This document shows, one piece after another, positions 2-20,409 of a stretch of DNA of 64,000 nucleotides. The notes under the pieces were generated by a model. The model saw only the letters and a list, made by a program, of their open reading frames with translations. It ran no database searches and had not been told where the DNA came from. Source of the stretch: Fibrobacteria bacterium (lineage in GTDB: Bacteria > Fibrobacterota > Fibrobacteria > UBA11236); contig JAYTHY010000042.1 of the NCBI GenBank assembly GCA_043732185.1, forward strand, positions 32,624 to 96,623. The letters run 5' to 3'. How positions within the stretch are numbered: position 1 is the stretch's first letter; the number at the start of each line of letters is the position of its first letter. The translations under genes were made by a program, and so were the position numbers.

Positions 2-118
2 GTCCTGGAATCCCTAAACGTCTCCGTCGAGGACTCCAAAATCATGGTGGATATCAAATACCGATTGGCCGGAACCGGTGACTCGCGTATGCTGCGCTTC
101 CAACACAAAGGAACTTGA
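2..118 (+). CDS. 3' end of probable GPW/gp25-family baseplate protein (partial, runs off window start)
   Basis: Frame 2 is open from the edge (VLESLNVSVEDSKIMVDIKYRLAGTGDSRMLRFQHKGT*, TGA 116-118). The beta-strand pattern fits a gp25 C-terminus, and it lies directly upstream of a baseplate J-like gene. Confidence 0.6.
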   Translation, partial: VLESLNVSVEDSKIMVDIKYRLAGTGDSRMLRFQHKGT

Positions 119-126
119 CAGGTAAA

Positions 127-2796
127 ATGTTTAGCGAAATCGAAAAACCCCTGCGGGAACTGGCATTAAGTGAGCCGCTGATGGCGCGTGCCCGGCTGAT
201 GACCGGTGTCGTCCCTGCAAATGCGCCCAATGGCATCAAACTTGTGCGCGTCCTTTCGGTTGACAACCTCAAGAATGAAGCGTTGCTGGAAATGCATTTC
301 TTCAATCTGAATCGACTGGCGGATATCGTTGCGGCCTATGCTGTGGATCGATCCGTGGCGAAAAAGATTTTTCCGATTTCGGGAGGATCGCGCATACGTG
401 CCGGAGCGGCCTTAGGGCAGGTACAAGTGGATGCCGCACCTTTACCCGCGCCCGCATCGATCGTCCTACCGTCCCCGACTGTGCCTGTGTTGGTCCTGCG
501 AGTGGCACCCATCGGAGATTATTCCACCTACACCATCGGGATAAGTGCGCTGCAAGCCTCCGGATGGGTTTTTGACCCGCTGTTCGCGGAAATTGGTTTC
601 AAATTCCGGCCAGGCTGCTTCAACACCAATTGCGCACCCGGGTGGGACATGGCCATGCCGCCGTTGTCGGAGCCTTCCATCGATTATTTGGCAAAGGATT
701 ATGGATCCTTTCGTAAGACCATGATCGCTGCCATGATGGAGCGCGTTCCTGGATGGGAGCCAACTAGCGAAGGCGATCTCGATATGGTCCTGGCCGAACT
801 GTTCAGTGTGGCAGCCGATGAATTAAGCGACTTTCAAGATCGAGTGATGAACGAAGCCTACCTCGCATCCTCCCGTAAGCGCGTTTCCATCGCCAGGCAT
901 GCGCGATTAATGGATTACCATATTCATCAGGGGAACCAGGCGTCCACCTGGCTCGCGCTTGAGATCCTCCACTTTACCGGGCCAACCCAATCGTTCCAGC
1001 TCAAGGAAGGACTCAAAGTTTGGGCGGGTGAATCCAATGCCACCACAGGAACGGAAATCGATACCTCTGTGCATTTCGTTTCCAGGCATGCAACCAAAAC
1101 CGTTCATCAATATTTGAACAGCCTTGGACTCTACACTTGGAGCAATTCCATCACTACGCTCACAGCGGGGAGCACGCGGGCGGATGTAAAGGTATTTCAA
1201 AAGTATTACCTGGACGACACTGCAGGCGCCATTCCGGATTCCACAGAATCCGCCGCGAAGGCAGTCCAAGATCTGATCCGGAACGGCAAAGTCAAGCACC
1301 TGCTTATTCAAGAGCACCTAAACCCGGAAACGGGATTTTTTGCCGGTCGCGATCCCAATAAACGACAATTGCTAAACCTTATTTCCGGCCATGATTTGGC
1401 TACTGCCGCCACCGCGCTCCAAGATCCGGTTACCGGCGAATGGTTCATCCGCGTCCGCTGGGAAAAAAAAGATGCGTTACGGCGTGATTATTGTTTTCGG
1501 GTTGAATGTCCTGCAACGCACGCGGGCACGGCCATAGGGCCGGTCGACAACATTTCTCTTTTCCATGGAAATTTGATCGAAGTTTTTCACGGGAAGGAAG
1601 GCGCGGCGCTTTTCAAAAACCCCGGCGAAATTCTGGGAGAAACCGAGCCGCTCCAATTTCATTATGAGCGAACCCGCTGGGGCGCGTTGTGCCGTTTGCC
1701 AGATGCGCCTCTGTTGTATCGCTATTCAGAGCCGGGCGGTGATGCCCCTCCGGTTTCCACTTTGGACCTCCAAATCAAGGACCCGGCACTGGGAACAGCC
1801 ATACCTTGGTATGAAGTGCCCAGCTTCATTCATAGCGATGATTCCGCCAAGGGAGGGGATCATTTTGTCGTGGAAACGGATGAAGCCAAGCGCAGCGTGA
1901 TCCGTTTTGGGAATGGACGGAATGGCATGGAATTGTCCGACACGGCGGAAGTCACGGTCAAATACCAGTTTGGAGAACCCGGAGAAGGCAATGTCGGCGC
2001 GGACAGCATCCTCTATTTCGATGCTGCCTCTGTGTCAGTGGATCCAAATATTCCTGTGCTTAACGTGTATAGCTGCTGGAATCCCTTCGATGTGACTAAC
2101 GGCCGGGACCGGGAGCCTGTGGTGGAGATTCTCCGCCGGGTTCCGGAGGCCTATCGCCAACGGCAGCTTAGAGCCGTAACCCTGGCCGATTATGTTGCAT
2201 GGGCTGAAGGTATAGAAGGTGTTTCTCGCGCGGCCGCTAAATACGCATGGACCGGCAGCTGGCGAACCGTGCGCATCACAATAGATCCCATCGGTACCAA
2301 TGTGCTTTCCGATAGTTTGCGGAAACAAGTCGAGGCGGAGTTAAATGCCATCCGATTGATCGGCGAGGACATCGAAGTGCGTCCACCTCGATTTGTGCCT
2401 CTGGAAATAAAAGTTGCCGTGTGCGCGACTCCTGAGGTTTGGCCGGAGGATATCCAGTTTGTTCTTGAGCAAGAGTTTTCTGACGGATGGACACCCGATG
2501 GCCGCATGGGATTTTTCCATCCCGATTTATGGACGTTTGGGCAGGCGCTGCATGCCAGCCAAATCATTGGTCGGGCGATGTTGGTAAGTGGGGTGGAACA
2601 TTTCCTGGCCAAAAAAGTGGGCCCGACAAGTACCGGACCCTTGATCAGCGTTTCGATCAAGCGTTGGAATTCGCCTTTTCCGCCGGTAGAATCGCTTACC
2701 CAGTTGGATCACAATGAAATCATCATGGTCCAAAACGATCCGGATCATATGGAGTTCGGCACAATCTCCTTCGAAATCAAGGGAGGCAGGCGATGA
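127..2796 (+). CDS. eCIS baseplate assembly protein 1 (baseplate J/gp6-like)
   Basis: Motifs IDYLAKDYGSFRKTMI..VPGW...DLDMVLAELFS..ADELSDFQDRVMNEAYL, IRFGNGRNG, GNVGADSI, RAVTLADY..WTGSWRTVRITID. ATG 127 preferred over TTG 115. Confidence 0.85.
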   Translation: MFSEIEKPLRELALSEPLMARARLMTGVVPANAPNGIKLVRVLSVDNLKNEALLEMHFFNLNRLADIVAAYAVDRSVAKKIFPISGGSRIRAGAALGQVQVDAAPLPAPASIVLPSPTVPVLVLRVAPIGDYSTYTIGISALQASGWVFDPLFAEIGFKFRPGCFNTNCAPGWDMAMPPLSEPSIDYLAKDYGSFRKTMIAAMMERVPGWEPTSEGDLDMVLAELFSVAADELSDFQDRVMNEAYLASSRKRVSIARHARLMDYHIHQGNQASTWLALEILHFTGPTQSFQLKEGLKVWAGESNATTGTEIDTSVHFVSRHATKTVHQYLNSLGLYTWSNSITTLTAGSTRADVKVFQKYYLDDTAGAIPDSTESAAKAVQDLIRNGKVKHLLIQEHLNPETGFFAGRDPNKRQLLNLISGHDLATAATALQDPVTGEWFIRVRWEKKDALRRDYCFRVECPATHAGTAIGPVDNISLFHGNLIEVFHGKEGAALFKNPGEILGETEPLQFHYERTRWGALCRLPDAPLLYRYSEPGGDAPPVSTLDLQIKDPALGTAIPWYEVPSFIHSDDSAKGGDHFVVETDEAKRSVIRFGNGRNGMELSDTAEVTVKYQFGEPGEGNVGADSILYFDAASVSVDPNIPVLNVYSCWNPFDVTNGRDREPVVEILRRVPEAYRQRQLRAVTLADYVAWAEGIEGVSRAAAKYAWTGSWRTVRITIDPIGTNVLSDSLRKQVEAELNAIRLIGEDIEVRPPRFVPLEIKVAVCATPEVWPEDIQFVLEQEFSDGWTPDGRMGFFHPDLWTFGQALHASQIIGRAMLVSGVEHFLAKKVGPTSTGPLISVSIKRWNSPFPPVESLTQLDHNEIIMVQNDPDHMEFGTISFEIKGGRR

Positions 2797-5700
2797 GCGA
2801 TGTCGATAATGGCTGTGCCAACGAATGCGCGCTGCCCTTGCGGTTTCCGCAGCGGCCCGGGGAAAACCAGTTTGTGGCGCATGGCGCAGGATGTTCCTGC
2901 TGCCAGCCTGGGGCGAGCCTCACTTCCGACAATCGACCCGCCTTGCCGCATTTTAATTACCGTATCGGTACCTATGGAAGTATTCGCGAATGGCTCCTTC
3001 ACCAGATAAACCAGGCGCCAAACCTGCGGAGATGGACCCATCGCTCGCCGGATGATCCTGGTATCGCTTTGCTGGAAGGCGCAGCCATACTGGGTGACAT
3101 CCTCACATTCTATCAAGACACCTATGCCAACGAGGCTTATTTAAGAACCGCCAAATGGCGGGAAAGCATATCGGATCTGGTTCGACTGTTTGGATACAGG
3201 CTGTCCCCGGCCATTGGTGGTAAGGCTGTATTCGCATTCGAGATCAAAAAAGATGAGCCTGTGACGATACCCGCCGGGTTTCCTCTCAAGGCGTCTCTGG
3301 AAGGAGTGGATGCGCCCGCTGTCTTTGAAACCAACATAGAGTCGATTGCCTATCCCTGGCTCAGTCGCTTCAATTTGTTCCGGCCATTGGTGGACACGAC
3401 TTTCGACGCGGAATTCGAAATCGAAATTCCGGAACAGCACCTTTCATTTGTGGAGATCAAGATTGGGGAACGACTGATTCTCGGTGAAAGTGAATCTGTC
3501 TGGAGCAACCGGTCCTTGGAGCTGGAGAACGCGGACATGTATTTCGTCGAGGCCATTCGCGAATTGCACGGCACAAAAATATACCGGGTGAAAGGCAAGT
3601 TGAAGGATTGGTCGCCAAATAAAAACGTGTTTGCTTTGCGGATCGGTCGCACCTTTCATCATTTTGGACATAACGGCCCCGCCAAGATTATAAACTCTGC
3701 AAAACCCATCAAATCAATTTCCGCGGTGACGGTGGGATCCGGTTCAGGTTCGTCCAAAACCGTGAGCTCTTCGGAAATTCCCTACTTAAGTGTTCCTTTC
3801 ACAAGGCCCGTTACGGATGCGTCCGAGTACTATTCTGATTCCGCTTTGAGTCCCCCGGTGCGATACAGCGACTTTCCATTGGAGATGGAAGTCCAGGATC
3901 TGATTGCAGGGGGACCGGTAGTCATCCAGGCCCGATTCGCTTTCCCCGGCATCCGCAATGTTTCGGAATATTCTGAAGCCAAGACACTGGTTCGTACACT
4001 GGAAAAAGTCGAACCCATGACCATGACCTGGGGCGGGCTCAGCGAATCGATAACCCGAATTCGCATCGAGGAACGTATTTCCGATGCTGGGTTCTTGAAT
4101 ACCATTCCCGCCAATTTGTCCGTGGTGGCCGGGATGGAAGCGAGCCAAGCTGATACAGACGAGGAGAACGCTCGTGGCCTACTCGAAAGGGCCAATGCAG
4201 CGGCGGCTGCCGCCAAAGACGCAGCCGATGCCGCAGCCAAGGACGAGATCAGGGCCAAAGCGGAAGCCGCTGACCTAGCCGCCCGCGCCGATGCTGCGAT
4301 CAACAAGGCTGCGGTTTTGACTTTGGCTTATTCGGTTGCGGCCGCTGCGTTGAAAGACGACACAACCGATGCCATGACTAAAATAGCCGCCCAAAAAGCG
4401 GTTGACGCTTTGAATGCCGCCAATACATCTCAGCGTTCAACGAATGCTGCTGCCCTTGATGCTCAGAACCATCGTAACTTTGCGGTTCACGCTAAAGATG
4501 TAACGGTAGGGGCTGATATCGCTGCGGCAATTGGTGTTGCGATCTTGGATCCGATTTGTGCTCCAATTGTTGCCGGAGTATCGATTGTGGCCACAACCCT
4601 AGCGGCCAATTCCGCCAATCAGGCAGAGTCCGTTTTGCACAATGTTAATGAGGCAAAAAAGGACGTTGACCTGGCGCAAATTGCCACGTCTGTTGCAAAA
4701 GTTGCAGCTGATAATGCTGCCAGTGCCGCCGCCGCCGATGCAGACGCGACGCGACGCGCAGAAGAGGCGAAGCAGGAGGCAAATAAAGCTAAGGAAGATG
4801 CTGACAAAGCAGTCGAAAAAGCGCTAAAGGCAAAGCAGGCAGCCCATGAAGCTGAGCGGATTGCCGAAGAGAGGGCCGCGCGGGCACACATTACTGCCAA
4901 GGCTGTCGAAGTTGCTGAGGAGGACGTTGCAGCCGCGGTTGATATCGCCCTCGAAAAAAATCGTATCAAGAATACCCGGATGTACATTGGGGACGCTTTG
5001 TTCCACGAAGTGACAAGTCCAAAGTTGCAAGTTAAAGCCGCCCGTTTGGAAACCTCAGAGGTTAAAGGCGCTACACTCAATTATTTCGGCACCGCGGATC
5101 AAGTGAAAGCGCTCTCCGGCCGCCAAATTCTACTGGAAAAAAAAGGTTCTCAGCCCGGTCTTTTAACCGTCGAACCCGTACTGGAAAATTTTCCCGCCAG
5201 CACCAAGGATTTTGCCATCCTGCGGAAGATCAGTCTATCAAGCGCGGTCGCATACGCCGATTTCCCGAACCTAAAACCTGTGACTACTGTTTTCGGAAAT
5301 GTAGTCGAGGCCGATGAAGGCAAAACACAACCTGAAGTGGTGATCGGAAGCGGGGATGCCACGCGCGTATTTCAGAATTTTCAGGTTCCCAAAGCTCCGC
5401 TTACCTATCACATTGTCACGGAAAACAGCCCATCCGAAACACCAGCAGCGGAGGTCTACGTAGGTGGAAAGCTCTGGTCTAAGGTGGACAGCTTTTTCGG
5501 ACACGCGTCAGAGGAGCGAATCTACATCGTCCGGGAGGATGCTGCGGGAAATAGTTGGGTGCAATTCGGTGATGGAAAAACGGGCGCGCGCCTGCCCAGT
5601 GGCTCGGATAACGTGACTGTTATCTATCGAACAGGAGCCGGAGCTTATGGAGCGTTGAAAGACGACTCCAAGGTTCAGGCTTTGGCCAAGCTCAAAAACT

Positions 5701-6417: not shown

Positions 6418-9048
6418 ATGTCGGACGAAAAACGCGTGGAACTTTATCGTCGACTTCCGGAAATCTACCGGATCAAGGATGAAGGCCTGCCCGAAAAATA
6501 TCTGCATGACGGAGAGCGAGTGGAGGCGTACCAGCTCCGCAGCTTTCTGGAACCGGTGGAGGGCATGTTTTCCGCCATCCACGAAAATATTGAATCGCTC
6601 TATCATGATTTCTTCATCGAAACCTGCGATGAGTGGGTGGTTCCCTATATCGCCGATCTTTTAGGCACCACGCACCTTTCCGGAGATGCATGGACGCTGC
6701 GCGCCGATGTCGCCGACACCATTGCGCTACGCCGCCGCAAAGGAACGCTCGGAGCCGTCGAGCTCCTTGCCTTCATTTTGACAAAATGGGGCGTGCATTG
6801 CGTGGAGCTTCTGGAAAATCTGGTCTGGAATCAGCACCTCAACCATCAGCGTCCAGACGAAGGCGGAGCGCCACCTTATGGCTTGCTCAAATTGTCTCGT
6901 GGGGCGCCCATCCGAGGCGGAACCGTGACGCTGCGCGATCCATCCTTGCTGGCCCAGCTAAACACCCCATTCGATCCCTTCGCCCATGTAGTTGATGTGC
7001 AGCCGCACGCTATCGGCCAGGTCCGCCATAACCTACCCAACCTGGCAGTCTACTTCTGGAGATTGAAAGAGTACCGGCTGAACGTCGTCAAACCCCGATC
7101 GAGATCGGTCATTCCTTCTCCCGGTGCTTCTCCCATCGTTCGCATCCATATCGATCCAGTGCCGATGAATACGCTCTCCGCGCCCTATGTCAAAAATAAC
7201 AACCAGCCGGGAGGGCGCCCGGTAACTTTGTTCAATACCAATCGCTTTGACCTTTTTAACAGGAAGCGTACAGGTATCGACAAACTCAATCTTTCGGCAC
7301 TCAAACCACGGATCTCCACCGTGGACCAGGTCCCGGGGCCTATTCCGATGGAGCGATTGTCTGATTTGGAATTCGCCAAGCAGTATGATGCCTCGCTGGC
7401 TTCATCTACGCCGCAACCCTTGGAGACCTTTGCCGCTGCAGCGTTCACTGCGCCGCAAGAATATGTCGCTGTGGAAACGTATGACGTGCTGAATCCGAAT
7501 CTGAATGCGTTGGACATTTCCGATCAGGGTTTGCAATTGCATCTTCCCGACTCCATTTTTCCAGGCGAGGCGTGGCCCCATACATCCCTTCCGCGTTACT
7601 GGACCATTCGTGGAGAAAACCTCTGCGCCTGGGAAAGAGGCCTCAATCCGCCGCTCAAGGTTCGCGAAATCGCCATCGATCCTGAGCGGGGACGCATGTG
7701 CATGGGTGTCGCCGACGATGCCCAGGCTAAGGCGATTGTCGAGGATATGTTGGTGACCTTTACTTATGGTGCGGTCGGAGACGTCGGTGCACATCCCATT
7801 TCATATCCCGCTTTGCCCAAAGCCTTCAATCATGAAATGAACCCCTTGGTGATTTACAAATCCGTGAACCTGCGCCAAGGGCCGGACTTGCAACAGTCTT
7901 TGGAAGCTGCGCTCGTGGCCGCGCAGCAAAAAGTAGCTGCCGATCCGGAACTCTTTGGAAATGTCCCGATTGTTTTAGAGATAGTCGACAGTCGCACGCA
8001 TAGGCTGGATATCGGCGCACTCCCAGCATCGGTCTTCGTTACGGAAGGTGGCGTACCCAGTATAAAATTGAATGCACCCCTCATCATCCGCGCCGCAGAC
8101 GGGCAGCGCCCAATACTTGAGCTGGTCCAACCACTCGCCTTTAGGCCTGCCAAATTAATCGGCACGAATGCGGCCCTTCAGGGTCAACTGGATGCCATGA
8201 TGGGCAGTCTGTTCGTGCGCTTAGAAGGCCTGTATGTCGCACGGGAATTAAATTATCCAGCTGGTCTGCCGCTCATCAGTCGCGCTGCGCTGAACAAGTT
8301 GGAAATCTTGAATTGCACGCTTGATCCCGGTGGATTCATGCGCTTTAACCATACCCGCGCCCCGCTGTTGCCGGGCATTAGGCTTTTTGAACCTTATGGA
8401 TTTGAGGATCCCGCGGAGAAACTGGCCTTCAAGCAAACTCCAGAACTCATCATCCAGCGATCGGTTTGCGGCGCAGTTTTCACCGATCCCGGATACCGAA
8501 TCTGCATCAACGATTCCATTCTCGATTCCGTCCCGGTTACACTTCAAGGTGGGGGTGGACAGCAGGATGTCTTCGCCCTCTCCGGAGCGACCGATCCGGC
8601 AAGCGGGTATGCCGGGCAAACGACTCTGAAAAATGTCACCTGCCTGGGAAGGGTACGGACCGCGAGTATCGACGGGAGTGGCGGCATTTTCAAGGGGTTT
8701 GTCGATGTTTATGATCCACAATCCGGTTGCCTAAAATATTGCTATTTCACGGATGACACGGTTGTTCCCGGTCCAGCGGACGGTGCGATAAACCGTTTGC
8801 CCCAACACTTTGCCTGCGTCAACGGAAAGGAAGCCCGACTGGTCTTTACCAGTGAGTGCTTCGGAAACGCTGCATACTGTCAGCTCTCACTCGAATGTGA
8901 TCCGGATATTCTGGAACGGGGAGTAGGCAACGATCAAATGGGTGCTTTCAATTTTCTGCGGGAAGCCCACAAGTGGGCCAATTTAAAAATCAGGTTTAGA
9001 GAATTCATGCCGGTAGGGATCAAACCGATTTTGATTCCGGTAACTTAG
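6418..9048 (+). CDS. phage tail protein I (P2 gpI)-like baseplate wedge protein with C-terminal extension
   Basis: LYRRLPEIYRIKD, LYHDFFIETCDEWVVPYIADLLG, RADVADTIALRRRKGT, IAIDPERGR, and a C-terminal GAF..REFMPVG. Confidence 0.75.
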   Translation: MSDEKRVELYRRLPEIYRIKDEGLPEKYLHDGERVEAYQLRSFLEPVEGMFSAIHENIESLYHDFFIETCDEWVVPYIADLLGTTHLSGDAWTLRADVADTIALRRRKGTLGAVELLAFILTKWGVHCVELLENLVWNQHLNHQRPDEGGAPPYGLLKLSRGAPIRGGTVTLRDPSLLAQLNTPFDPFAHVVDVQPHAIGQVRHNLPNLAVYFWRLKEYRLNVVKPRSRSVIPSPGASPIVRIHIDPVPMNTLSAPYVKNNNQPGGRPVTLFNTNRFDLFNRKRTGIDKLNLSALKPRISTVDQVPGPIPMERLSDLEFAKQYDASLASSTPQPLETFAAAAFTAPQEYVAVETYDVLNPNLNALDISDQGLQLHLPDSIFPGEAWPHTSLPRYWTIRGENLCAWERGLNPPLKVREIAIDPERGRMCMGVADDAQAKAIVEDMLVTFTYGAVGDVGAHPISYPALPKAFNHEMNPLVIYKSVNLRQGPDLQQSLEAALVAAQQKVAADPELFGNVPIVLEIVDSRTHRLDIGALPASVFVTEGGVPSIKLNAPLIIRAADGQRPILELVQPLAFRPAKLIGTNAALQGQLDAMMGSLFVRLEGLYVARELNYPAGLPLISRAALNKLEILNCTLDPGGFMRFNHTRAPLLPGIRLFEPYGFEDPAEKLAFKQTPELIIQRSVCGAVFTDPGYRICINDSILDSVPVTLQGGGGQQDVFALSGATDPASGYAGQTTLKNVTCLGRVRTASIDGSGGIFKGFVDVYDPQSGCLKYCYFTDDTVVPGPADGAINRLPQHFACVNGKEARLVFTSECFGNAAYCQLSLECDPDILERGVGNDQMGAFNFLREAHKWANLKIRFREFMPVGIKPILIPVT

Positions 9049-12000: not shown

Positions 12001-12580
12001 GCTGGCTCTCATCCCAGCTATGGATCATGGATTTAAGAATATCCAATCAGGCACAGCTGCAAATGCCCAGGTGGAAAAAACTCCCGTTACCCTGAACGCT
12101 GTATCACTTCCAAAAAACCAGGTCCGTTATTTTGCTACGGGTACCGTTCTATTCACCAACAATCAATGTCACCAGAACCTGGCCACACCGGCGCCATCCT
12201 TTGCATTATCATCGATATGTATCGCCAGTTTGGATGATGTAGGTTTTCACACGAATCAATGCGATTGCGATCTGGATCAGGACTTTTTGATGGTCAATGC
12301 CTTTATATTTGGAATGACAGCAAGAATCAGTGATAACCGGTTTCGAGAATCTCTGATGAAAGTATTTTTTTCCGCCGCGACATTCGGAATGCAAGTTATC
12401 ACTACAGACAACGAATCCATCCATTGCCTACTTGTACTGGGCACCGCCTACCTAAAACGACACAACCTGGTTCTGCTTGAAATCGGAACCATCAATGGCG
12501 ACATAACCAAGGTGGATGGTCCGCATGTTTGCGACAATATTATGAAGTTGTTCAAAAATTTTGGCATCCCTAATAAATAA
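9062..12580 (+). CDS. DUF6519-like protein with C-terminal right-handed parallel beta-helix (putative tail fibre/spike)
   Basis: N-terminal MRGDFS...QQGRVLIDRDWN, GRVWADGLL, EPALGGVDTTERVQ, GYTGFEHRLYRIEI, FKWSQFNG. Then IQDAINALP..GGEVCILPGVY and repeated I.x.N.x.I beta-helix rungs. Confidence 0.75.
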   Translation: MRGDFSTWNKDGSRNFRGTLHQQGRVLIDRDWNAQTEINIEWQQTAGRDAFGAGVAAVPAELPQGFKVTGAKIVGSDVLVAVSKGRVWADGLLVESPKDISNRIASYLNLPPKTLPNPNAAPRDAVILESWLEELNPFQATSLLIEPALGGVDTTERVQTAFRFRLFRMESGDTCDSILPKLADDFSAKGKLTVKLDPFTDTGGDCPVVESGGYTGFEHRLYRIEIAETAKAGAWFKWSQFNGGLVGTGDFDAPSRKVSIHGNLNAILHCGVSEFYFEALDLDDATGYWRVAYAAKATLGPDNKLALPTPAHPDEFLGPYPPAPVTGKRFFRLWNGIEPIADYVTAEKDLPDLVGIKLKFDTTVAAKYTPSDFWTFQVRAGEIGNPAVLVGDPVTFVGAPPQGILYHRVPLAEIMWSATGVDIEDCRRIFLPLTKLKTCCTYRVGDGVHSHGEFTRIQDAINALPKSEGGEVCILPGVYTENIVLDAPHNRNILLKGCGKRTVLRSGTKDPVIRVQSGQNIHIESLAVEANEDGIGILLNGEEKTASNGNREKYLKDITLSELFITAAKGSAIKAFVAQCLTLNDSVIQIKDAETREIAVYLAGDDMLVKGCEIRVVTEQLAKLGEATSNDLNHLYPAKGAPGGLQIAGGSERVRILDNLIVSGTRNGITLGSVDLIRQGHLIRNHIPIHWIGELEDCCKPDDGFVDDGNTTEDGSIPVAGPPLEDILIQANRIFNMGRNGIGVVTFFSLGDKTDPKDVSAIGKNTEKGVVSVSKLVICENRIERCLNSNLQEIPEKFGSLMGYGGISLADTEAFVVRDNFIIDNGPDFLEPICGIFVLSGQGIEISRNHILNNGMRNQKELNAKTVKRGPRGGIYIAMARTSGIDVIPGSDRSMYFASGFPAAKIHDNCVTVPLGRSLTLIANGPVSVIGNRFTSFGLRPINFLSLILSVATQGSLKAELLWDLIDLIAGNIFIFNQGMLALIPAMDHGFKNIQSGTAANAQVEKTPVTLNAVSLPKNQVRYFATGTVLFTNNQCHQNLATPAPSFALSSICIASLDDVGFHTNQCDCDLDQDFLMVNAFIFGMTARISDNRFRESLMKVFFSAATFGMQVITTDNESIHCLLVLGTAYLKRHNLVLLEIGTINGDITKVDGPHVCDNIMKLFKNFGIPNK

Positions 12581-12598: not shown

Positions 12599-13288
12599 AT
12601 GAATATGGAAGCTAGACAAAAAATTACCGTCGAACAGGCTGCTTCGGAACTGGATCGGAGCATGGAGAGCCTGGATGAATTGCGCGCCGCGCACCTAGGG
12701 GAATCGCTCAAAGTAGAAGGCGCCAAAGGGAATGTGTATGTCCGCGAACACGCGCGTTTGCTAGGGAAATACGGTAAGGGCCATCCTCGCACTTTGGATA
12801 TAGAGGCGCGAATGAAAGCCAATCAGATGTACCAGGCAGCTATCGTTACAGAATACCACAACGCGTCAACGCCGCGCCCCCAGCCCAGCAAGGGTTGGGC
12901 TTTGGACGGATTCGTCCGCTCAACCGATGGCCGGCCAGTGCATGGGGTGACGGTAGGTTTATACGATCGGGCGAATATGTGGCAACAGAGTTTTGGACAT
13001 GCCTGTACGGATAAGGACGGATATTTTTCCCTACGGGTTGATACGCTTCCGGAAAAACCGACCAGCCCATTATTCGTGCGGGCCGCCAAGGAAAGGCGGA
13101 TCCTCCCATCCCGTGATTTGCCCGTGCTCCCCAAAGCCGGTGCCACCAAAAGAGTGGAAATTATTTTGGGGGAACAGAATGATAAGAAAGAGGATTGCCT
13201 GCCGCCGGACGGGCAAATTACTCCGATGTCTACGCCTCCTGAGATCCAAGAAAACGAAAAGCCCGCTACCAAGAAAAATCGCAAATGA
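12599..13288 (+). CDS. eCIS accessory protein: N-terminal helical region plus carboxypeptidase-regulatory/transthyretin-like beta-sandwich
   Basis: LDGFVRSTDGRPVHGVTVGLYD...ACTDKDGYFSL pattern. GAGG-like SD upstream; sits in the operon. Confidence 0.6.
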   Translation: MNMEARQKITVEQAASELDRSMESLDELRAAHLGESLKVEGAKGNVYVREHARLLGKYGKGHPRTLDIEARMKANQMYQAAIVTEYHNASTPRPQPSKGWALDGFVRSTDGRPVHGVTVGLYDRANMWQQSFGHACTDKDGYFSLRVDTLPEKPTSPLFVRAAKERRILPSRDLPVLPKAGATKRVEIILGEQNDKKEDCLPPDGQITPMSTPPEIQENEKPATKKNRK

Positions 13289-13298: not shown

Positions 13299-15662
13299 AT
13301 GAAGACTTTTACATCGGATATACCGAAAAGAAAATTGCCGGAGACGGTGCATTCGCAGGACTGGACTGCAGAAAAATCGAGTGGCGTTCCGGAACCCTTT
13401 GGCCAAGGTCCGGTGCCTATCCTTCGCAAAGCTTCTTGTTCCTGCGGGGGCGGTTGTGCCTCCTGCCACGCATCCTCGAATGGTTTGCAGGTGTCCGAGC
13501 TTGGTGGTCCGGCTGAAATGGAAACGAGTAGGCAGAGAAATGAATGGAAGCCGCTGCCACTGGGTGTCGGGGCCTCTTCACAAAGCCCCGGGCATGTCCT
13601 TAAGGCATTGGACTCCGGCGGACAAGCACTCGATTCTCAAACCCGTAATTTTTTTGAACCGCGTCTGGGATACGATCTTAGCGGCGTTCGTGTACATACG
13701 GGCTCAAATGCCGAACACTCGGCGGCTGAGGTTAGTGCCAATGCCTACACCTTGGGCCAAAACATTGTTTTTGGAGCGGCTCGATTCGAGCCTGATACGC
13801 ATCAGGGCCGCCTCTTGCTTGGCCACGAGCTGACACATGTTGTCCAGCAAAGCAAAGCTCAGATCCATGCGCATGCATTTGAACCTGAAAATTCGCCAGC
13901 GGAACGCGAAGCCAGCACGGTAGCGAACGACATCGTTTACGGCGGCGCTCAAAATACTGTGACAGCCATTCCTAAGGGAATTCCTCGCGACGTGGGTTTT
14001 GCTGCACGAGGGCCTATTCCGGATGCGTATGGCCTAGGATACAATGAGATCCTAACTCGTGGCGGTCAGGGTTCGATGGCTGCTGTGTTTGACTTAGCAT
14101 CCCTCGAGACGGCATCGATGGATGCGGATCTGGGGAAATTTGACGCGATGACTCCGGAGAAGAAAAGCGCAATCCTGGCGCTCGAGCCTTACGCAGTAGG
14201 ATCCGCATGCGCACGCTGGTTCAATCGGCTGCGCGCGCACGCGAATGTGACAACTGCTTTGTCAACGATGCCGAAGTTGACGCCCGAACAAGAACGGGAA
14301 GGTGAGCTCGCATACTACCAGTCGACACGAGCGTCACAGTTAGATTCCGCTTACAGGCAATTCCTTGTAGAGCTTCCGCAACTTTCACCGGACCAGATTT
14401 ATGACCGGTGGAAGTCGGACCGGACGCGTTTTATAAAGATCGCATCGACTCCGAATCATGGCCTCCCTCCGGAGCAGATGATCCTAATCTATCGGCTCTA
14501 CTGGGGCGATTTCCGAGAAAGAGCCGTCGCGAAACAAATTGACCTCAACAACCGCCGACTCGGAGCAACGGATGAATTCGATCACGCAGAGAGAGAGGAA
14601 GAATTCGCAAATGCAGCTCTTGCTGCGGTTGTCGACGCGCATGAAAACCTTTTGGCAGCGCAGGCAATCGGTAGGAGCTTGACACTGGACGTACTAACCG
14701 AATACGCCCTCAACTCGGTCGGCTTTCGACAGGGGTTGGCACTACTCGCTATGGCCATTGGATCGGTAGGCCAGGTTCGTGGAACCGGCTCGCCTCGTCC
14801 CACAAAATCGAGCGCTACACCCGCAACATCACAGCCCGTTGCAAGTTCCGCGCGCCAGCAAGGGCCACCGAATTTGGAAGTGATTCAGGGCGGCGGTCAA
14901 GGACGCGCCGCGCCGTCGGTTAACACGACACCGGCCGTGAACCAGCCGGTTGCCTATACAGGGCAAGGTGGAGCTGCTCCTAACCTTGCCCTCGATCCCG
15001 TTGTCGCGCCAGTCGTGGCACCACGCCACCTGCAAAGCGTTCCAATGCCTGCGCCAGTTCCAGTCCAAGCTCCCGTGATTATGCCCGCACCCAGCCCATT
15101 AGCGCCTACTGTTGCACCTATCTCTGCCATTTCGCCCTTTGCAGCCATCGGAATAGGGGTGGCCTCTCGAATCGGCACATCACAACTTCCTCGCCCTGAT
15201 GTGGACACGGATTTGGATGAACCGGTAAAGCGTGGCCAGTGCACGTACCAATCGATTCCCCAGCAATTCGGGAGGTTCCCGTGCCACGCGGCGTACGCTA
15301 CAAGTCTTAGTGGTGTTTCGCGAGAAGTTCGAGTCAAAAATCCCATCGAGCAGTCGGTTGATTTCGATGCCATGAATCACGGCGGTATGCTCTTCGAAGT
15401 GAAAACGGGATACCGATGGTTGCCATTCATGAAGGACGAGAAGCGCAAAAATGAAATCATAACCCGGTTCTGGCTGCAAGCGGTGAATCAGCTGATGGTG
15501 GCTGGAAGTTGCGGCCACCCCTTGAAGTGGTATTTCAACGACCCGTATGCTGCCAGTTTTTTCGGAGCAGTGAATTCGCCCTATCCTAAATACTTCGGTG
15601 CCCCGTTGCCTGTTGAGGTTTGGTACGTTCCTTATGCTTGCGACCAGGATAGTGATGGATAG
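13299..15662 (+). CDS. DUF4157 (eCIS core) effector 1 with C-terminal restriction-endonuclease-fold (Tox-REase-5-like) toxin
   Basis: RKASCSCGGGCASC leader. Core RNFFEPRLGYDLSGVRVHT..ANAYTLGQNIVF..LLGHELTHVVQQ. C-terminal VDFDA..LFEVKTGY..QAVNQ..LKWYF. Start moved to ATG 13299 to avoid overlapping the upstream gene. Confidence 0.75.
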   Translation: MKTFTSDIPKRKLPETVHSQDWTAEKSSGVPEPFGQGPVPILRKASCSCGGGCASCHASSNGLQVSELGGPAEMETSRQRNEWKPLPLGVGASSQSPGHVLKALDSGGQALDSQTRNFFEPRLGYDLSGVRVHTGSNAEHSAAEVSANAYTLGQNIVFGAARFEPDTHQGRLLLGHELTHVVQQSKAQIHAHAFEPENSPAEREASTVANDIVYGGAQNTVTAIPKGIPRDVGFAARGPIPDAYGLGYNEILTRGGQGSMAAVFDLASLETASMDADLGKFDAMTPEKKSAILALEPYAVGSACARWFNRLRAHANVTTALSTMPKLTPEQEREGELAYYQSTRASQLDSAYRQFLVELPQLSPDQIYDRWKSDRTRFIKIASTPNHGLPPEQMILIYRLYWGDFRERAVAKQIDLNNRRLGATDEFDHAEREEEFANAALAAVVDAHENLLAAQAIGRSLTLDVLTEYALNSVGFRQGLALLAMAIGSVGQVRGTGSPRPTKSSATPATSQPVASSARQQGPPNLEVIQGGGQGRAAPSVNTTPAVNQPVAYTGQGGAAPNLALDPVVAPVVAPRHLQSVPMPAPVPVQAPVIMPAPSPLAPTVAPISAISPFAAIGIGVASRIGTSQLPRPDVDTDLDEPVKRGQCTYQSIPQQFGRFPCHAAYATSLSGVSREVRVKNPIEQSVDFDAMNHGGMLFEVKTGYRWLPFMKDEKRKNEIITRFWLQAVNQLMVAGSCGHPLKWYFNDPYAASFFGAVNSPYPKYFGAPLPVEVWYVPYACDQDSDG

Positions 15663-15692
15663 GTTCACTTGGAGGGGAGAGGTAAACGGCCT

Positions 15693-17171
15693 ATGAACGC
15701 AAGAGCCATGAACCAGAGAGAGTCTGCAAATTTCGATTTACAAAAGCACCGTCAAGGGGACCGGGCGGAACTTTTCCGGGAAATTTTCCCCGGGATGGCC
15801 GACCAGAATAGGGTTTCGGTCTTTCGCAAAGCCTCATGTTCCTGCGGAGGGGGTTGTCCCTCTTGCCAGGAATCCTCAAATAATTTGCAACTGTCTCAAC
15901 CCGGTGATCCGGCAGAAGTGGAAGCCGATCAGGTTGCCGAAAAAATCATGAGGATGCCCAACAACGAAAGCGGGAAACTCCGGAGTGAATCCAAACCGGA
16001 GGCTTGGCCGATCCAAAATCCGGCATTCGCCAGCCAGGCAGCCGGTTCCGGTGGCGTTCCGCTCGATACCGGACTCCGTGGTTTTTTTGAACCACGCTTC
16101 GGCGCAGATCTCAGCGAAGTTCGGATTCACTCGGGACACACGGCGGCGGAGTCCGCCCAAGCCATCGACGCTAAGGCTTTCACGATGGGTAGCAATATTT
16201 TTTTCAATGCAGGAGAATATCAGCCGGAAACAACTTCGGGAAAACACCTCCTTGCCCATGAACTCGCACATGTCCGCCAAGGTGGCGGTGGCATCCGGCG
16301 CTGCGCCAATCCTGCAGTGAATGACCCAAAATTTGATTGGCAAATCGGTAAAGTCAAAAAGCATCCCAACTATCTGGCTTTGGCGGATAAAACTGAGGCC
16401 GATGATGTATTGGTCGAGTTGAAAAAGCAACCTGCGTGCCTTTGGATGCTGGAAAAGTTTCTGACGCTACTGGATACGGCGGAAAAAAGTGAGGCAACCA
16501 TCACTTTGGAAACCAATGATTCAACTGCAGCTGCGGTAGCGGACGAAAAGACACGCGTAGCGATTCCCGCCCAGGCGAAAAACCTGACACTTGAAGAGAC
16601 CCTCTCCGCGGATCCGAAACGGAAATGGGTGAAAGTCACCGGAAAATTTGGGAACGGGAAATACGAGGTTGACAATACAGATCCAAAAAATATTGTGGTG
16701 CGGGCGAAAATATTCCTGCAGACAGCAGGTACTGGCAAGGTTGCGGATGTGGATAGCGTCAAGGCGATGGAAGACGCGATTGAAAAAGCGGCATCGACCA
16801 AGGGGTTCACGGTGGATCTCACTTTTGTGAACACGGCCGGGAATGATGCGTTTGAAGTGGATGTGAATCCAGGAGCATGGGAGGACGCAACGAACTGGGC
16901 AGGAGGAGAACCCCTGGGGTTCGCGCATGAATTTTTCCACCTCATGTTCTATGAAGTGGACCGCTACAACTATATCGATGCCCATTCCACCAACGCATCG
17001 ATGATGATACCATCCAGGATCCATTGGTTTTTGCTGCAATTGAAAAAACCGGCAGGCTGGGACAACCCCGCTTCCATTGCCGCCGGTGGGCCTCATCCAC
17101 TCGACGATGATATTTGCAGGGTGGCCGGATTGCCTGAAGCCGATTGCATCCGAAAACGGAGATCTCCTTAA
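15693..17171 (+). CDS. DUF4157 effector 2 with C-terminal zincin-type metallopeptidase toxin
   Basis: RKASCSCGGGCPSC leader, core FFEPRFGADLSEVRIH..AKAFTMGSNIFF..LLAHELAHVRQ, and a second Zn motif AHEFFHLMFYEVDRY at about 16923-16970. Confidence 0.75.
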   Translation: MNARAMNQRESANFDLQKHRQGDRAELFREIFPGMADQNRVSVFRKASCSCGGGCPSCQESSNNLQLSQPGDPAEVEADQVAEKIMRMPNNESGKLRSESKPEAWPIQNPAFASQAAGSGGVPLDTGLRGFFEPRFGADLSEVRIHSGHTAAESAQAIDAKAFTMGSNIFFNAGEYQPETTSGKHLLAHELAHVRQGGGGIRRCANPAVNDPKFDWQIGKVKKHPNYLALADKTEADDVLVELKKQPACLWMLEKFLTLLDTAEKSEATITLETNDSTAAAVADEKTRVAIPAQAKNLTLEETLSADPKRKWVKVTGKFGNGKYEVDNTDPKNIVVRAKIFLQTAGTGKVADVDSVKAMEDAIEKAASTKGFTVDLTFVNTAGNDAFEVDVNPGAWEDATNWAGGEPLGFAHEFFHLMFYEVDRYNYIDAHSTNASMMIPSRIHWFLLQLKKPAGWDNPASIAAGGPHPLDDDICRVAGLPEADCIRKRRSP

Positions 17172-17187
17172 CTGGAGAGACCCTACA

Positions 17188-20100
17188 ATGGAACGATTGG
17201 CGGCATCGAACAAAACGGACCCCGCCCGAAATAAAACGCGTGGTGCTGCGCCTATACCTGAAAATGTAGACACCACTTATGGATTGGGTGGTTTTCCCGA
17301 CATTATTTACCGTAAAGCTGCCTGTGCCTGCGGCGGCGGATGTCCAGCTTGCCTGGCAAATTCCGGTAGCCTGAGGGTTTCCCAACCTGGAGATCAGACA
17401 GAAGTAGAGGCGGATAAGGTTGCGGATGAAATCATGCGCGCCCCGACCCTGCATCGAAAGGCTTTATCCACAACAGGAGATGCGTCTTCCAAAGCCGCAG
17501 ATCATGTGCAGAAAGCAGTTCAAGCGGGCGGTCGCCCTCTGGAGGATCGAACCCGTCAATTTTTCGAACCGCGCATTGGATATGATCTAAGTTCGGTTCG
17601 GCTGCACACGGGCGAGAGCGCGGCGCAATCCGCACACGCGTTACAAGCAAGAGCGTATACACTAGGCAACGACATCGTTTTCGGAGAAAATGAATACACG
17701 GAAGATTCTGAAAGCGGTAAACGACTGCTCGCGCACGAGCTTGCGCATGTCACCGGAAACCATTCCGGCATCCATCGGGATCCTAAACCCGATGCTGTGG
17801 TGGACCCAGTGGAGGTGAGGCTAGAGGGATTGCCAACCGATGGCCTAAAACTGATGGCCAAGGCTGAACGTACAGGCGCGAACATCATCGATGCAGAAAT
17901 GGTGATGAACGGTGACTTGGTGCTTCCCGAATTCGGGGTGCATGACAATGCTGGAAAGGTATGGGCTTGGATAAACGTACCCGGGAAAAACGCCCTTGAC
18001 GTTCCCGTCAACAGGGCATTCGCCAAAGCCCGCGGCTTCAATTATCCGATTTTGCACGGGTTCATCGAATTTAAATACCTCGGCAACATCACCATTCCGA
18101 TTACCATTTATGCAAAGCCTCCCGAAAAAGTGGAGCCACCCGCTCCAGTTTCAGTAGAGCCTCCCAAAAGGGACAAGCCCAGTCCGCCCGAGGCGCAGCC
18201 CGCCAAAGATTTGATCAGCCAAGCGACTTCGTGGTCGATTTTGAGTAAAAAAGATCTCGGGAAAAAACTGCTCGATTATGCAGATGGTGGAGATTTTTCG
18301 ACACCGGATTCCGTGCTCGAAGAATTATGGAGCAACAATCGGGACGATGTAAGCTTTGAAATGACCCTAGCCGCCAGCGACGAACAGCTTGCGGGAATGG
18401 CGGAAACTGCGGACGGACGGAAATTTCTGGACCGGCTCTACGATGAATTGACAAGTGGTTCCGCAGATGAAAAAGAGCAAGCCCAAGCCGAGCGCATACT
18501 GATGGCCAAAGCGGGTCGCATCGATCCCAAAAAATTCATGAACGCGGAAAAATCGGCCATGGTTATCCCATTCTCCGGATCCGGGTTCACTAAATTCAGC
18601 TCCGCTTCCCTGTCCGTGCATCGTATGGACAACGGAAACATTTGGGTGCGCAGCCACATGAAAACCGAGCATTGGAAGGATGCAAAACTTTCACCCGAGC
18701 ACTATGCCATTATGTACTCCGGGATAGAAATGGATCCGGACACAGTCGTAGGGGTATACCTCTACGACGAAGGCGGAAAAATCATCTACATGCCGGCGCT
18801 TTATCTGCTTCAACTGAGCAATACAGATACCACGAAAGTGGGAATGATGGCGGGAGAAGCTTTCGTTACGGGCCTTACTTTTGGACTAGGTGGAGAGGCG
18901 GTGGCTGTCGGCGAAACTGCGAACGCTTCACGCGCTGCAATTTGGGGCGCACGTGCAGTCAATTATCTGAAATGGACCGACCGGGCTGCCACTGCGGTTG
19001 CAGCCGCAAGCACTTTGGTCAACGACCACAGGGGTTGGATTATTGAAAAATTCGGAGATGACGGGCGCTGGATCCTTAAGGAATGGGCCAAGGTCGATCG
19101 GATCTTGATGATCTACGGGTTGGCGAGAGGTGCAGTCGCATTGGGCCAAATGGGGTACGGTTTGCGGGCAAGTTGGAAAAATTGGCGGACCGCGGCTAGC
19201 AAGGTCGACGATTTGGCTGCGGACGAAAAGAAAATAGTCGATGAACTGTCTTCGAACGTGGAGCAGACCCTAGAAGAAATAGAAACGGCCCAGGCAAAAG
19301 CAGGAATGGGAGCGAAAGCACCGACAGCCAATGTCGCAGGGGAAGCAGATGCGGCAGCGGATGAAATAAACGTCCTAAATAAAAACGATACTGTCTCCAC
19401 TGCGGGTGAAGTAGAGGGTGCCGGCGCTGAAGTTGTTGATTTGGATCAGTATAGGAAACAGCAAGCTGCCAAAAAGGCAGCCAAACAATCGGCACCAATC
19501 CAGCAATTGAAAAAAACGGGAACCGATGATACCGTGGCGGTTGCCCAGGATTCGACCATTGCGGCGAACGACAATGCGGAGATTGTAGACGCGCCTTCAA
19601 CCTCAACCAACACCAGTACCAGCACTCGAAAATCAGCGGGAACCGCCACGGTTACCCCCATTAAGCCACGTGTGGAAGTCGATCTCTCCGAATTCCCCAA
19701 TGGCGCCGACCTGACGAAAGACAAATGGATTGGGAAAAAATGGAAACCGGGAGATGATTTACCCAAAGGATATGTGCCACTAAAGGACGGAGGGATTCGA
19801 CGGGGCCCCGGTTTTAGAGAGAAAAATTTTGTCCCGCTCGAAGTGAAAGATGGAAAGTTGGCCGTCGGCACTGCAGGAGAGCGCATCAGCAATCCCTCTG
19901 TGATGAACAGAAACTACAAGAGCGCTGTGGGCCAGGAGCTGCGGGCAAAAAACCCTGGTTGGACCGAAGCCAAACTGGAGGCGGAATTGATCAAAGAAGT
20001 GGAAAAGAATTCCGTCCACCATTTGATACCAGATAATGTGGTTCAAGATCATCCGCTTGCCCAAGCCGCGACCAAAGCGGGGTACAGTCTCGATAACGCC

Positions 20101-20409
20101 GGTAACCTAAAGGGGTTGCCCAAATCAAAGGTATTGACGGACATCGAGGCCGGCGAGATGGGGCATTGGACCAGTCACCCTCAGTATGATCGGCTCGTCA
20201 AAGACGAGCTCGACACGGTCCAAAAAGCGTTGGAAAAGGAGTTCAAGTCGCTCGATAAGGTGCCCAAACAGCGTTTGCTTGATGCACTGAAAAGCGTCGA
20301 AGACAAGCTCCGAAAACTGATCGAGGACGGCAAGGCTCCCATTAAGGACGGCCATCTAGCAGAGGATGAGCCAAGGGATTCCAATGATGAATCGGAATCC
20401 TATGCTTGA
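17188..20409 (+). CDS. DUF4157 effector 3 with C-terminal AHH-family HNH nuclease
   Basis: RKAACACGGGCPAC leader, core FFEPRIGYDLSSVRLHT..ARAYTLGNDIVF..LLAHELAHV, C-terminal SVHHLIP...HPL...YSLDNAGNLKGLP...HWTSHPQYDRLV. ATG 17188 follows a GGAG SD. Confidence 0.8.
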   Translation: MERLAASNKTDPARNKTRGAAPIPENVDTTYGLGGFPDIIYRKAACACGGGCPACLANSGSLRVSQPGDQTEVEADKVADEIMRAPTLHRKALSTTGDASSKAADHVQKAVQAGGRPLEDRTRQFFEPRIGYDLSSVRLHTGESAAQSAHALQARAYTLGNDIVFGENEYTEDSESGKRLLAHELAHVTGNHSGIHRDPKPDAVVDPVEVRLEGLPTDGLKLMAKAERTGANIIDAEMVMNGDLVLPEFGVHDNAGKVWAWINVPGKNALDVPVNRAFAKARGFNYPILHGFIEFKYLGNITIPITIYAKPPEKVEPPAPVSVEPPKRDKPSPPEAQPAKDLISQATSWSILSKKDLGKKLLDYADGGDFSTPDSVLEELWSNNRDDVSFEMTLAASDEQLAGMAETADGRKFLDRLYDELTSGSADEKEQAQAERILMAKAGRIDPKKFMNAEKSAMVIPFSGSGFTKFSSASLSVHRMDNGNIWVRSHMKTEHWKDAKLSPEHYAIMYSGIEMDPDTVVGVYLYDEGGKIIYMPALYLLQLSNTDTTKVGMMAGEAFVTGLTFGLGGEAVAVGETANASRAAIWGARAVNYLKWTDRAATAVAAASTLVNDHRGWIIEKFGDDGRWILKEWAKVDRILMIYGLARGAVALGQMGYGLRASWKNWRTAASKVDDLAADEKKIVDELSSNVEQTLEEIETAQAKAGMGAKAPTANVAGEADAAADEINVLNKNDTVSTAGEVEGAGAEVVDLDQYRKQQAAKKAAKQSAPIQQLKKTGTDDTVAVAQDSTIAANDNAEIVDAPSTSTNTSTSTRKSAGTATVTPIKPRVEVDLSEFPNGADLTKDKWIGKKWKPGDDLPKGYVPLKDGGIRRGPGFREKNFVPLEVKDGKLAVGTAGERISNPSVMNRNYKSAVGQELRAKNPGWTEAKLEAELIKEVEKNSVHHLIPDNVVQDHPLAQAATKAGYSLDNAGNLKGLPKSKVLTDIEAGEMGHWTSHPQYDRLVKDELDTVQKALEKEFKSLDKVPKQRLLDALKSVEDKLRKLIEDGKAPIKDGHLAEDEPRDSNDESESYA

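Follow-up and report, generated by a model that had tools for sequence, protein, structure and literature searches.

A contractile injection system locus with a probable DUF4157 cargo cassette in a little-studied host, probably of the phylum Fibrobacterota

The 64,000-base stretch of DNA analysed here (hereafter the window; G000:C42:32624-96623) begins with a close-packed, co-directional run of nine plus-strand genes (positions 2-20409). These genes are best explained as the distal half of one contractile injection system (CIS), which is chromosomal, spans about 32 kb and carries a cassette of three DUF4157 cargo genes at its end. We hold this explanation as a whole to be probable, and its core, namely that the locus is a CIS with DUF4157 cargo, to be very likely. 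That the particles act outside the cell is favoured less strongly, the term 'extracellular' being deduced from the genes alone. The system is of a well-described kind, and its host, an uncultured sediment bacterium probably of the phylum Fibrobacterota, is little studied; a full-text search for 'contractile injection' together with 'Fibrobacter' found no such system described, as judged by titles and abstracts. An earlier note on this DNA had listed a gp25-like gene, two baseplate J-like genes, a gpI-like gene, a DUF6519/beta-helix gene, an accessory gene and three DUF4157 genes in one co-directional run, and every one of these is present (ORF, open reading frame):

2-118, plus strand: 3' end of a gp25-like baseplate wedge gene (last 39 codons; frame and stop codon read)
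127-2796, plus strand: ORF1, 889 residues, baseplate J/gp6-like protein (Cis11-like paralog a); Baseplate_J at 4.5e-9, TIGR02243
2793-6416, plus strand: ORF2, 1207 residues, second baseplate J-like protein (Cis11-like paralog b); TIGR02243, BLASTP match to ORF1
4056-5000, plus strand: alanine-rich insertion, ORF2 residues ~422-736; composition and Kyte-Doolittle scans
6418-9048, plus strand: ORF3, 876 residues, weak gpI/gp7-like baseplate protein (Cis12-like by position); Tail_P2_I
9062-12580, plus strand: ORF4, 1172 residues, DUF6519 (eBAP5)-class tail fibre that includes a right-handed beta-helix; Pfam
12599-13288, plus strand: ORF5, 229 residues, accessory protein; only a sub-threshold CarboxypepD_reg match (4.5e-4)
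13299-15662, plus strand: ORF6, 787 residues, cargo candidate; N-terminal region, DUF4157 at 13629-13859, unrelated middle part, PD-(D/E)xK-like C-terminal domain at 15180-15659
15669 (TTG)-17171, plus strand: ORF7, 500 residues (492 with the ATG at 15693 as start), cargo candidate; disordered N-terminus, DUF4157 at 16059-16289, metzincin-like C-terminal domain at ~16320-17168
17188-20409, plus strand: ORF8, 1073 residues, cargo candidate; N-terminal region, DUF4157 at 17536-17763, long middle part, AHH domain at ~19990-20280

Neighbouring genes of this run overlap by 4 bases at the closest and are 18 bases apart at the widest, or 30 bases if ORF7 starts at its ATG. The remaining CIS genes were found in the 12 kb upstream of the window, when the 32.6 kb preceding it on the 96.6-kb contig were annotated. 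They follow one another in the order sheath, tube, 261-residue protein, 336-residue protein, cap, ATPase, CIS_tube, 99-residue protein, 387-residue protein, spike, PAAR-like gene and gp25. The complete gp25 gene encodes 126 residues, starts 263 bases 5' of the window and matches GPW_gp25 with an E of 6.8e-12 (L001:19662-19997). The other assignments made upstream of the window were as follows:

Sheath, 801 residues: Phage_sheath_1, 1e-11
gp19 tube: E 1e-39
261-residue protein: T4_baseplate and a PHROG baseplate-hub family match
Pvc16_N cap: E 2e-18
AAA ATPase, 719 residues: E 1e-28
CIS_tube-like protein: weak match
Phage_base_V spike: E 5e-13
DUF4280/PAAR-like gene: weak, E 0.013

The 336-, 99- and 387-residue proteins of this structural region received no name from PHROGs or NCBIfam, and neither did ORF5. 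The gene set by which an extracellular CIS (eCIS) of the Afp/PVC-like kind is recognised, i.e. sheath, tube, gp25, gp6-like, gp7-like, spike and tip genes, occurs here in one cluster, with weak gp7-like (0.0043) and PAAR-like (0.013) assignments. The eCIS-type gene order with DUF4157 that the earlier note had proposed is therefore borne out by the structural set together with Pvc16_N, the AAA ATPase and three eCIS_core matches. Of the genes it suggested seeking upstream, those for sheath, tube, spike and AAA ATPase were found, the PAAR-like gene was recognised weakly, and no LysM domain was seen in the upstream annotation. The gp19-type tube gene is a single-copy gene in the genome.

The extent of the system was delimited by comparison with a genome of another genus (G016), in which the block from the sheath gene to the last DUF4157 gene is syntenic (identities of 78% for the sheath, 88% for the tube, 71% for ORF1, 53% for ORF2 and 70%/58% for ORF4), while the genes flanking the system in the window were not found nearby. 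As the block is shared and its flanks differ, the unit comprises the genes from sheath to ORF8, i.e. 20 genes in about 32 kb.

The sheath, tube and baseplate genes descend from those of phage tails, as would be expected of a defective prophage tail or of an R-type tailocin, which would kill solely by puncturing. This alternative is hardly credible for the present locus. No capsid, terminase or type VI secretion system (T6SS) membrane-complex families were detected by Pfam among the window's 32 other ORFs of at least 150 residues or in the 32.6 kb upstream, in keeping with their absence from the window as first read, and the larger ORFs of the whole 96.6-kb contig gave no Pfam family match for capsid, portal or terminase; integrase and lysis genes were not recognised on the contig either. 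Upstream capsid, portal or terminase genes, which would have spoken for a prophage, are thus missing, and sheath and tube genes are in place. Moreover, the eCIS markers Pvc16_N, AAA ATPase, DUF4157 and DUF6519 are present, and the sheath matches that of a pyocin at merely 5e-6, as opposed to 2e-74 for CIS sheaths. ClpP, ClpX, Lon and DivIVA are encoded farther upstream of the CIS, and a fused E1 dehydrogenase, sugar-metabolism genes, PolA, CoaE and a purF-like gene downstream. With housekeeping genes on both flanks, the locus is not a prophage.

The three genes at the end of the run share one plan. ORF6, ORF7 and ORF8 all match eCIS_core (formerly DUF4157) in Pfam, with values of 3e-28, 5e-31 and 4.5e-28, respectively. 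Upstream of this domain, their alignment revealed a common RKAxCxCGGGCxxC motif, which in ORF7 and ORF8 is followed by an acidic motif, LxVSQPGDxxEVEAD (of the type PGDxxExEAD), that is degenerate in ORF6. Before and after these N-terminal motifs and DUF4157 the three proteins are unrelated, and so are their C-terminal domains. In nucleotide terms, the CxC...CxxC and acidic (D/E)xxEx(E/K/Q)A(D/N/E) motifs lie 5' of DUF4157 at window positions 13425-13560, 15825-15960 and 17311-17445. Both motifs recur across phyla: among 38 proteins with the ORF7 C-terminal domain, 26 have the cysteine motif and 33 the acidic one, and among 46 with the ORF6 C-terminal domain the numbers are 22 and 29. The two motifs are not mentioned in the portion of the cargo-loading literature that was consulted (preprint 10.64898/2026.05.27.728243).

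The C-terminal domain of ORF6 is supported as a PD-(D/E)xK nuclease fold by its model, and a nuclease role is predicted for it. Its last 160 residues have 94 relatives, 69 of them at 1e-10 or better. Among the 67 longer relatives that were scanned (26 short ones and the record from the window itself were excluded), 50 contain DUF4157, 2 contain DUF6310 only and 15 gave no match. An alignment of 33 members has an invariant D63, with E73 and K75 conserved in at least 90%, which corresponds to a D-x9-E-x-K pattern and to D690, E700 and K702 in the numbering of ORF6; DUF6310 is matched by 18 of these 33 members and Tox-REase-5 (PF15648) by 11, at best with 1.9e-5. The domain was modelled with a pLDDT (predicted local distance difference test) of 91 and a pTM (predicted template modelling score) of 0.85. 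The best fold matches of this model were chains of TseT-TsiT entries, with Z of 10.5 (root-mean-square deviation (rmsd) 4.1, 128 residues) and 10.2, followed by Card1 (Z 6.2) and then by Can2, Vsr and CdiA-CT nucleases, which are PD-(D/E)xK proteins. The entry titles do not say which chain was matched, and it is likely to be the toxin chain because of the nuclease rows lower in the list and the Pfam link. According to the consulted part of PMC9635880, TseT is a Tox-REase-5 PD-(D/E)xK effector. ORF6 resembles this T6SS effector of Pseudomonas aeruginosa in its best fold match, in its D...ExK residues and in the Tox-REase-5 matches of 11 of 33 relatives. It differs from TseT in that ORF6 itself has no sequence match, in that no TsiT-like immunity gene adjoins it, and in that its domain sits behind DUF4157 and not on a PAAR/chaperone route. 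One relative of the ORF6 domain gave a weak match to a Teneurin YD-shell (E 0.011).

For ORF7, a metzincin-like protease domain is the likely reading of the predicted structure. The part behind DUF4157 has 40 relatives, and 39 of these carry PF13699. In an alignment of the domain (n=31), H412-E413-x-x-H416 (counted from the ATG), D423 and M437 are invariant, with a spacing that differs from the canonical metzincin HExxHxxGxxH/D. The AlphaFold model has a pLDDT of 80 overall, above 90 in the C-terminal domain and below 50 for residues 1-69. When residues ~310-482 were compared by an exhaustive structural aligner, 15 of the 16 rows at ranks 2-17 were zinc metalloproteases (Z 5.2-6.0), including adamalysin, ulilysin, snapalysin, ADAMs and astacin. 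A scan of the genome contigs with the ORF7 alignment gave mostly bare DUF4157 matches; a full-length protein was found at 1 of 73 loci, and Algoriphagus was not retrieved.

ORF8 ends in a predicted AHH nuclease domain, an assignment supported by sequence: the match to AHH (PF14412) has an E of 9e-12 and 45.4 bits against a cut-off of 22.3, and reaches 1.4e-12 when the last 236 residues are taken alone. The dyad region reads VHH where the family name has AHH. The 'two nucleases, one protease' that had been proposed for the cassette agree with these folds and profiles, and Pfam itself names AHH alone.

By analogy with the AlgoCIS of Algoriphagus machipongonensis, the AAA ATPase would recognise the disordered N-termini of the three proteins, unfold them and thread them into the tube lumen. 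The fibre would then bind a target surface, and the contracting sheath would expel the cargo, whereupon ORF6 might refold as a PD-(D/E)xK nuclease, ORF7 as a metzincin-like zinc protease and ORF8 as an AHH nuclease. In AlgoCIS, Cgo1 and Cgo2 are reported to fill the tube lumen and to leave it on contraction (PMC8894135), and the consulted part of the preprint 10.64898/2026.05.27.728243 describes loading as requiring a disordered N-terminal region and the AAA protein Alg15, with DUF4157 being dispensable. The two systems have several traits in common. In both, the cargo encoded in the cluster consists of a disordered N-terminus, DUF4157 and a C-terminal domain that differs from protein to protein, and an AAA ATPase is encoded in the cluster. 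Both have a short cargo protein with a second metalloprotease-like motif (Cgo1 with 498 residues and ORF7 with 492/500 residues, compared by description) and one of more than 1000 residues (Cgo2 with 1228 and ORF8 with 1073). No immunity genes are reported for AlgoCIS in the part of its description consulted, and none were found here. In contrast to the two cargo genes of AlgoCIS, the present genome has three in the cluster and one elsewhere, and two of the three are predicted nucleases; its sheath is much nearer to those of Streptomyces and haloarchaea, and two Cis11-like paralogs and a DUF6519 fibre set it further apart.

Loci of eCIS that end, on the 3' side, with DUF4157-toxin genes arranged in tandem have been published before, as far as the consulted parts of PMC8213781, PMC8894135 and PMC11297309 go. 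The eCIS toxins of Geller 2021 (PMC8213781) and Danov 2024 (PMC11297309) are described there as having an N-terminal DUF4157, a long linker and a C-terminal toxin, the plan found here; they often lack an immunity gene, and toxins of the restriction-endonuclease and peptidase types are among them. Unlike in the consulted sections of those accounts, where they are not named, Tox-REase-5/DUF6310-like and metzincin-like families occur in the present cassette. For 983 of 1130 predicted DUF4157 toxins, no other annotated domain is reported (PMC11297309, consulted in part).

The DUF4157 proteins could also be something other than the payload, namely processing proteases or chaperones for other cargo, or effectors attached to the spike. 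The HExxH of DUF4157 is intact in all three genes, and the DUF4157 part of the ORF7 model has its best fold match in the metallopeptidase effector domain of VgrG2b (6h56_B; Z 7.0, rmsd 3.0, 86 residues). A chaperone role in cis or in trans is suggested in the consulted part of Danov et al. (PMC11297309), and the haloarchaeal study, as far as its consulted text goes, found the tube lumen devoid of density and put forward the spike as the place of attachment (PMC11566945). Against this stands the finding that each of ORF6, ORF7 and ORF8 carries a toxin-like C-terminal domain of its own, and that the AlgoCIS proteins of the same plan are themselves lumen cargo that does not depend on DUF4157 for loading. 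A role other than payload is accordingly an improbable one, and we continue to regard the three proteins as cargo.

No immunity genes were found after any of the cargo genes: the gaps behind ORF6 and ORF7 measure 6-30 and 16 bases, and the only ORFs lying wholly within the 60 bases after ORF8 are chance ORFs of at most 35 codons. Likewise, none were found next to the cargo genes of G016. The cassette has the variable tips of classic polymorphic toxin systems and does not have their immunity genes. Many eCIS toxins are without immunity genes too, according to the consulted part of Geller 2021 (PMC8213781). A plausible reason for this is storage in an unfolded state within the tube, which, together with a possible release by lysis of the producer, might make immunity genes unnecessary if the AlgoCIS analogy applies.

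The description of the C-terminal domains as 'interchangeable warheads' is in line with a reshuffled cassette in G016 and with a fourth cargo gene elsewhere in the window's genome. The first gene of the G016 cassette encodes an AHH protein 72% identical to ORF8. The second ends in 160 residues of which 110 are identical to those of ORF6, has an N-terminal part that is 38% identical, and is essentially unrelated to ORF6 in its middle part (77 of 293 residues aligned). The third encodes a DUF4157 protein of 1017 residues with a different C-terminus. The fourth DUF4157 gene of the window's genome lies away from the CIS on contig C89 (L094:10427-13147, minus strand; 906 residues). It has the same cysteine and acidic N-terminal motifs and a sub-threshold match to a GH-E HNH nuclease (1.3e-4), and directly behind it lies a 94-residue remnant of a further cargo N-terminus (L094:10025-10309, minus strand). 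The locus is about 150 bases from the contig end, a major facilitator superfamily transporter follows, and no obvious immunity gene was seen after the cargo gene. These arrangements suggest that the cargo set may turn over by recombination between the conserved N-terminal parts.

Variation between strains is concentrated in the N-terminal regions of the cargo genes. Near-identical DNA occurs in sediment metagenome runs from two studies, and the contigs of four DNA runs, compared with the window, gave only short pieces and strain-level differences; no RNA run containing the cassette was listed. In contigs of other sediment runs (X3, X4 and X6), a diverged stretch of the same length takes the place of the ORF7 N-terminal region at 15664-15915, and in X3 and X4, 40 bases of the ORF8 linker before DUF4157 (17439-17480) are replaced by 103. 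One apparent joint, 13750-16251, would fuse ORF6 and ORF7 within DUF4157; it was seen in a single contig at a depth of 2.6, with 23 letters on one side, and is likely to be a repeat artefact. The idea that gene conversion keeps the N-terminal motif alike gave an inconsistent result: the three G016 copies have 83-86% DNA identity over 135 bases and the three window copies only 59-67%.

The baseplate and fibre genes complete the picture of the machine. ORF1 matches Baseplate_J of Pfam (E 4.5e-9) and ORF2 gave no Pfam match. The 'putative baseplate assembly protein' family TIGR02243 is matched by ORF1 (4e-43) and ORF2 (5e-33), in both cases below the curated cut-off, and BLASTP aligns the two proteins in two collinear blocks (2e-8 and 9e-7). 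Because of this shared family and the collinear blocks, ORF2 is, at the level of sequence, a true paralog of ORF1. ORF3 matches Tail_P2_I with an E of 0.0043 (17.4 bits, cut-off 20.6), and the same signal was obtained for 3 of 3 ORF3 orthologs, at best with 0.0012; a profile of 3 ORF3 sequences found no relevant PDB sequence. A complex prediction with N-terminal pieces of ORF1, ORF3 and ORF2 scored 0.15, the mark being 0.32. In ORF4, residues 1-168 match DUF6519 (3.3e-9, 36.3 bits, cut-off 22.4) and residues 769-879 match Beta_helix (7.6e-6, 26.1 bits, cut-off 25.9). An N-terminal DUF6519 and a C-terminal beta-helix are the features of the eBAP5 fibre class, for which the consulted part of PMC12923769 gives 658 DUF6519 genes with frequent beta-helix ends and which it catalogues as an eCIS receptor binder. 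From its sequence, the ORF4 fibre would speak for binding to a target from outside; of 41 relatives, 8 encode ORF4-like fibres, the window's genome included. The N-terminal 112 residues of ORF5 are 38% identical to the product of the gene at the same position in G016.

Several results weigh against the explanation of the locus as a released, toxin-loaded particle. The locus is known here through its genes, so that loading, particle release and toxicity are predictions. No lysis genes were recognised in it. ORF1 to ORF4, taken singly, have no sequence match to solved chains in the PDB. The C-terminal domain of ORF6 itself matched no Pfam family at E up to 10, and its family profile no PDB sequence at the same limit; the models of ORF6 and ORF7 gave no Foldseek match in the PDB at E of 0.001 or less. 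The matches of ORF7 to the metzincin fold have Z values below 8, a range that the aligner calls common. No protein of 498 residues was among the relatives of the ORF7 domain, 10 of 40 of which are NCBI-sourced, so that orthology to Cgo1 is unsupported; moreover, the toxicity of Cgo1 in E. coli is reported to be independent of either HExxH motif (PMC8894135, consulted in part). Lastly, the closest sheaths in the PDB are those of Streptomyces coelicolor (Cis2; 8bky, 2.2e-74) and Halogeometricum borinquense (9ezm, 3.4e-72), and according to the consulted parts of the respective papers, the S. coelicolor CIS works in the cytoplasm (PMC10066040) and the H. borinquense CIS is membrane-bound (PMC11566945).

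These sheaths raise the alternative of a cell-bound CIS, either tethered to the membrane and fired on contact, as in haloarchaea, or acting within the cell under stress, as in Streptomyces; the DUF4157 proteins would still be secreted effectors. The sheaths of PVC, AFP, tCIS and AlgoCIS are far behind the two just named (8e-43 to 1e-37). For H. borinquense, two cis11 genes and five secreted DUF4157 proteins, some of them encoded outside the cluster, are described in the consulted part of PMC11566945, and this is matched here by the two baseplate J paralogs and by DUF4157 genes both in the cluster and elsewhere. The tube, however, ranks its relatives in the opposite order, with tCIS (2.7e-12) and AlgoCIS (2.8e-11) first. 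The toxic effectors of H. borinquense have downstream immunity partners (PMC11566945, consulted in part), whereas no immunity gene follows the cargo genes here. Neither was a counterpart of the six-helix membrane anchor gene of the haloarchaeal CIS found: a crude hydropathy scan that covered 22 proteins of the locus and its surroundings detected no multi-helix membrane anchor of that type and no multi-pass membrane protein. H. borinquense and S. coelicolor differ from the present host in having a single membrane, and a diderm envelope would require a trans-envelope complex, none of which is encoded at the locus. The S. coelicolor system differs further in that, as far as the consulted part of PMC10066040 goes, no tail fibre is mentioned for its cluster and none of its effectors is a DUF4157 protein; the present locus has a beta-helix fibre of a class catalogued among eCIS receptor binders. 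Finally, the host has a canonical T6SS sheath gene of its own (TssC, VipB family, 1.9e-128) on another contig (G000:C112:132486-133388, minus strand). On this evidence, we consider a cell-bound system unlikely.

A further point in favour of a cell-bound system comes from the alanine-rich insertion of ORF2. This insertion comprises about 315 residues. Its hydrophobic centre, formed by residues 572-605 (window 4506-4607), reaches a hydropathy of 2.15 on the Kyte-Doolittle scale, and no other stretch of the locus is strongly hydrophobic. ORF2 has 290 homologs at E of 0.001 or less, and the best 120 of these were surveyed by composition and hydropathy scans of each protein. The insertion block was present, across phyla, in all 20 of the surveyed homologs with at least 1100 residues, and in at least 14 of the 20 it contained the hydrophobic peak. 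The other 100, shorter homologs were without the block, with any alanine-rich window at all in 5 of the 100. The position of the insertion is conserved in G016, and one of the insertion-bearing homologs is named Aquincola sp. In tCIS, extensions of baseplate and fibre proteins are reported to anchor the machine to a membrane (PMC8894136, consulted in part). The insertion of ORF2 might form an extended helical arm in contact with a membrane. The CIS would then belong to the Streptomyces/haloarchaeal branch as a Gram-negative representative, anchored in its own membrane or inserting itself into that of a target, an idea that we regard as improbable. If true, a diderm would here use a mode of action for which there is no description so far, with delivery of DUF4157 nucleases without immunity genes.

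Under the preferred explanation, a chromosomal CIS with DUF4157 cargo, the locus adds a complete and well-delimited system from a phylum for which no description was found. Likely activities are assigned to two C-terminal families that are found behind DUF4157 and hardly anywhere else. As features of released and of cell-bound systems are combined in it, the locus could help to identify the genes that determine how such a system acts. The DUF4157 arrangement is common in the phylum and not exceptional: DUF4157 was found in 56 of 296 genomes (in 32 of 172 when the good ones alone are counted), and the genes often form tandem arrays with 2 to 5 members. The cassette itself shows no excess of promoter-like sequences (7 counted, 5.5 +/- 2.1 expected by chance).

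With regard to the surroundings of the CIS, a T6SS sheath subunit and this CIS are encoded by the same host. Immediately downstream, at 20470-22950 on the minus strand and converging on ORF8, lies the gene for a fused alpha and beta E1 dehydrogenase of 826 residues (E1_dh, Transket_pyr and Transketolase_C). Upstream of the CIS, L001:3578-4837 and L001:5007-6263 on the plus strand encode tandem paralogs of 419 and 418 residues that are 76% identical and have no family match, and the same is true for a neighbouring protein of 381 residues. These three genes are probably not part of the CIS, since they are not kept beside it in G016. Farther downstream, the G+C content of the window falls from about 0.52 to 0.42-0.47 between 32000 and 40000. 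This stretch encodes a PEP-CTERM protein (34265-34876, minus strand), a DDE transposase (35731-36753, minus strand), a protein with a type IX secretion sorting domain (36906-38375) and a BNR/Ycf48-like protein (38508-39608). Lastly, TIGR02147 (Fsuc_second), a large paralogous family that we take to be typical of Fibrobacter, has 24 above-cut-off matches in the window's genome and was matched in none of 14 control genomes.

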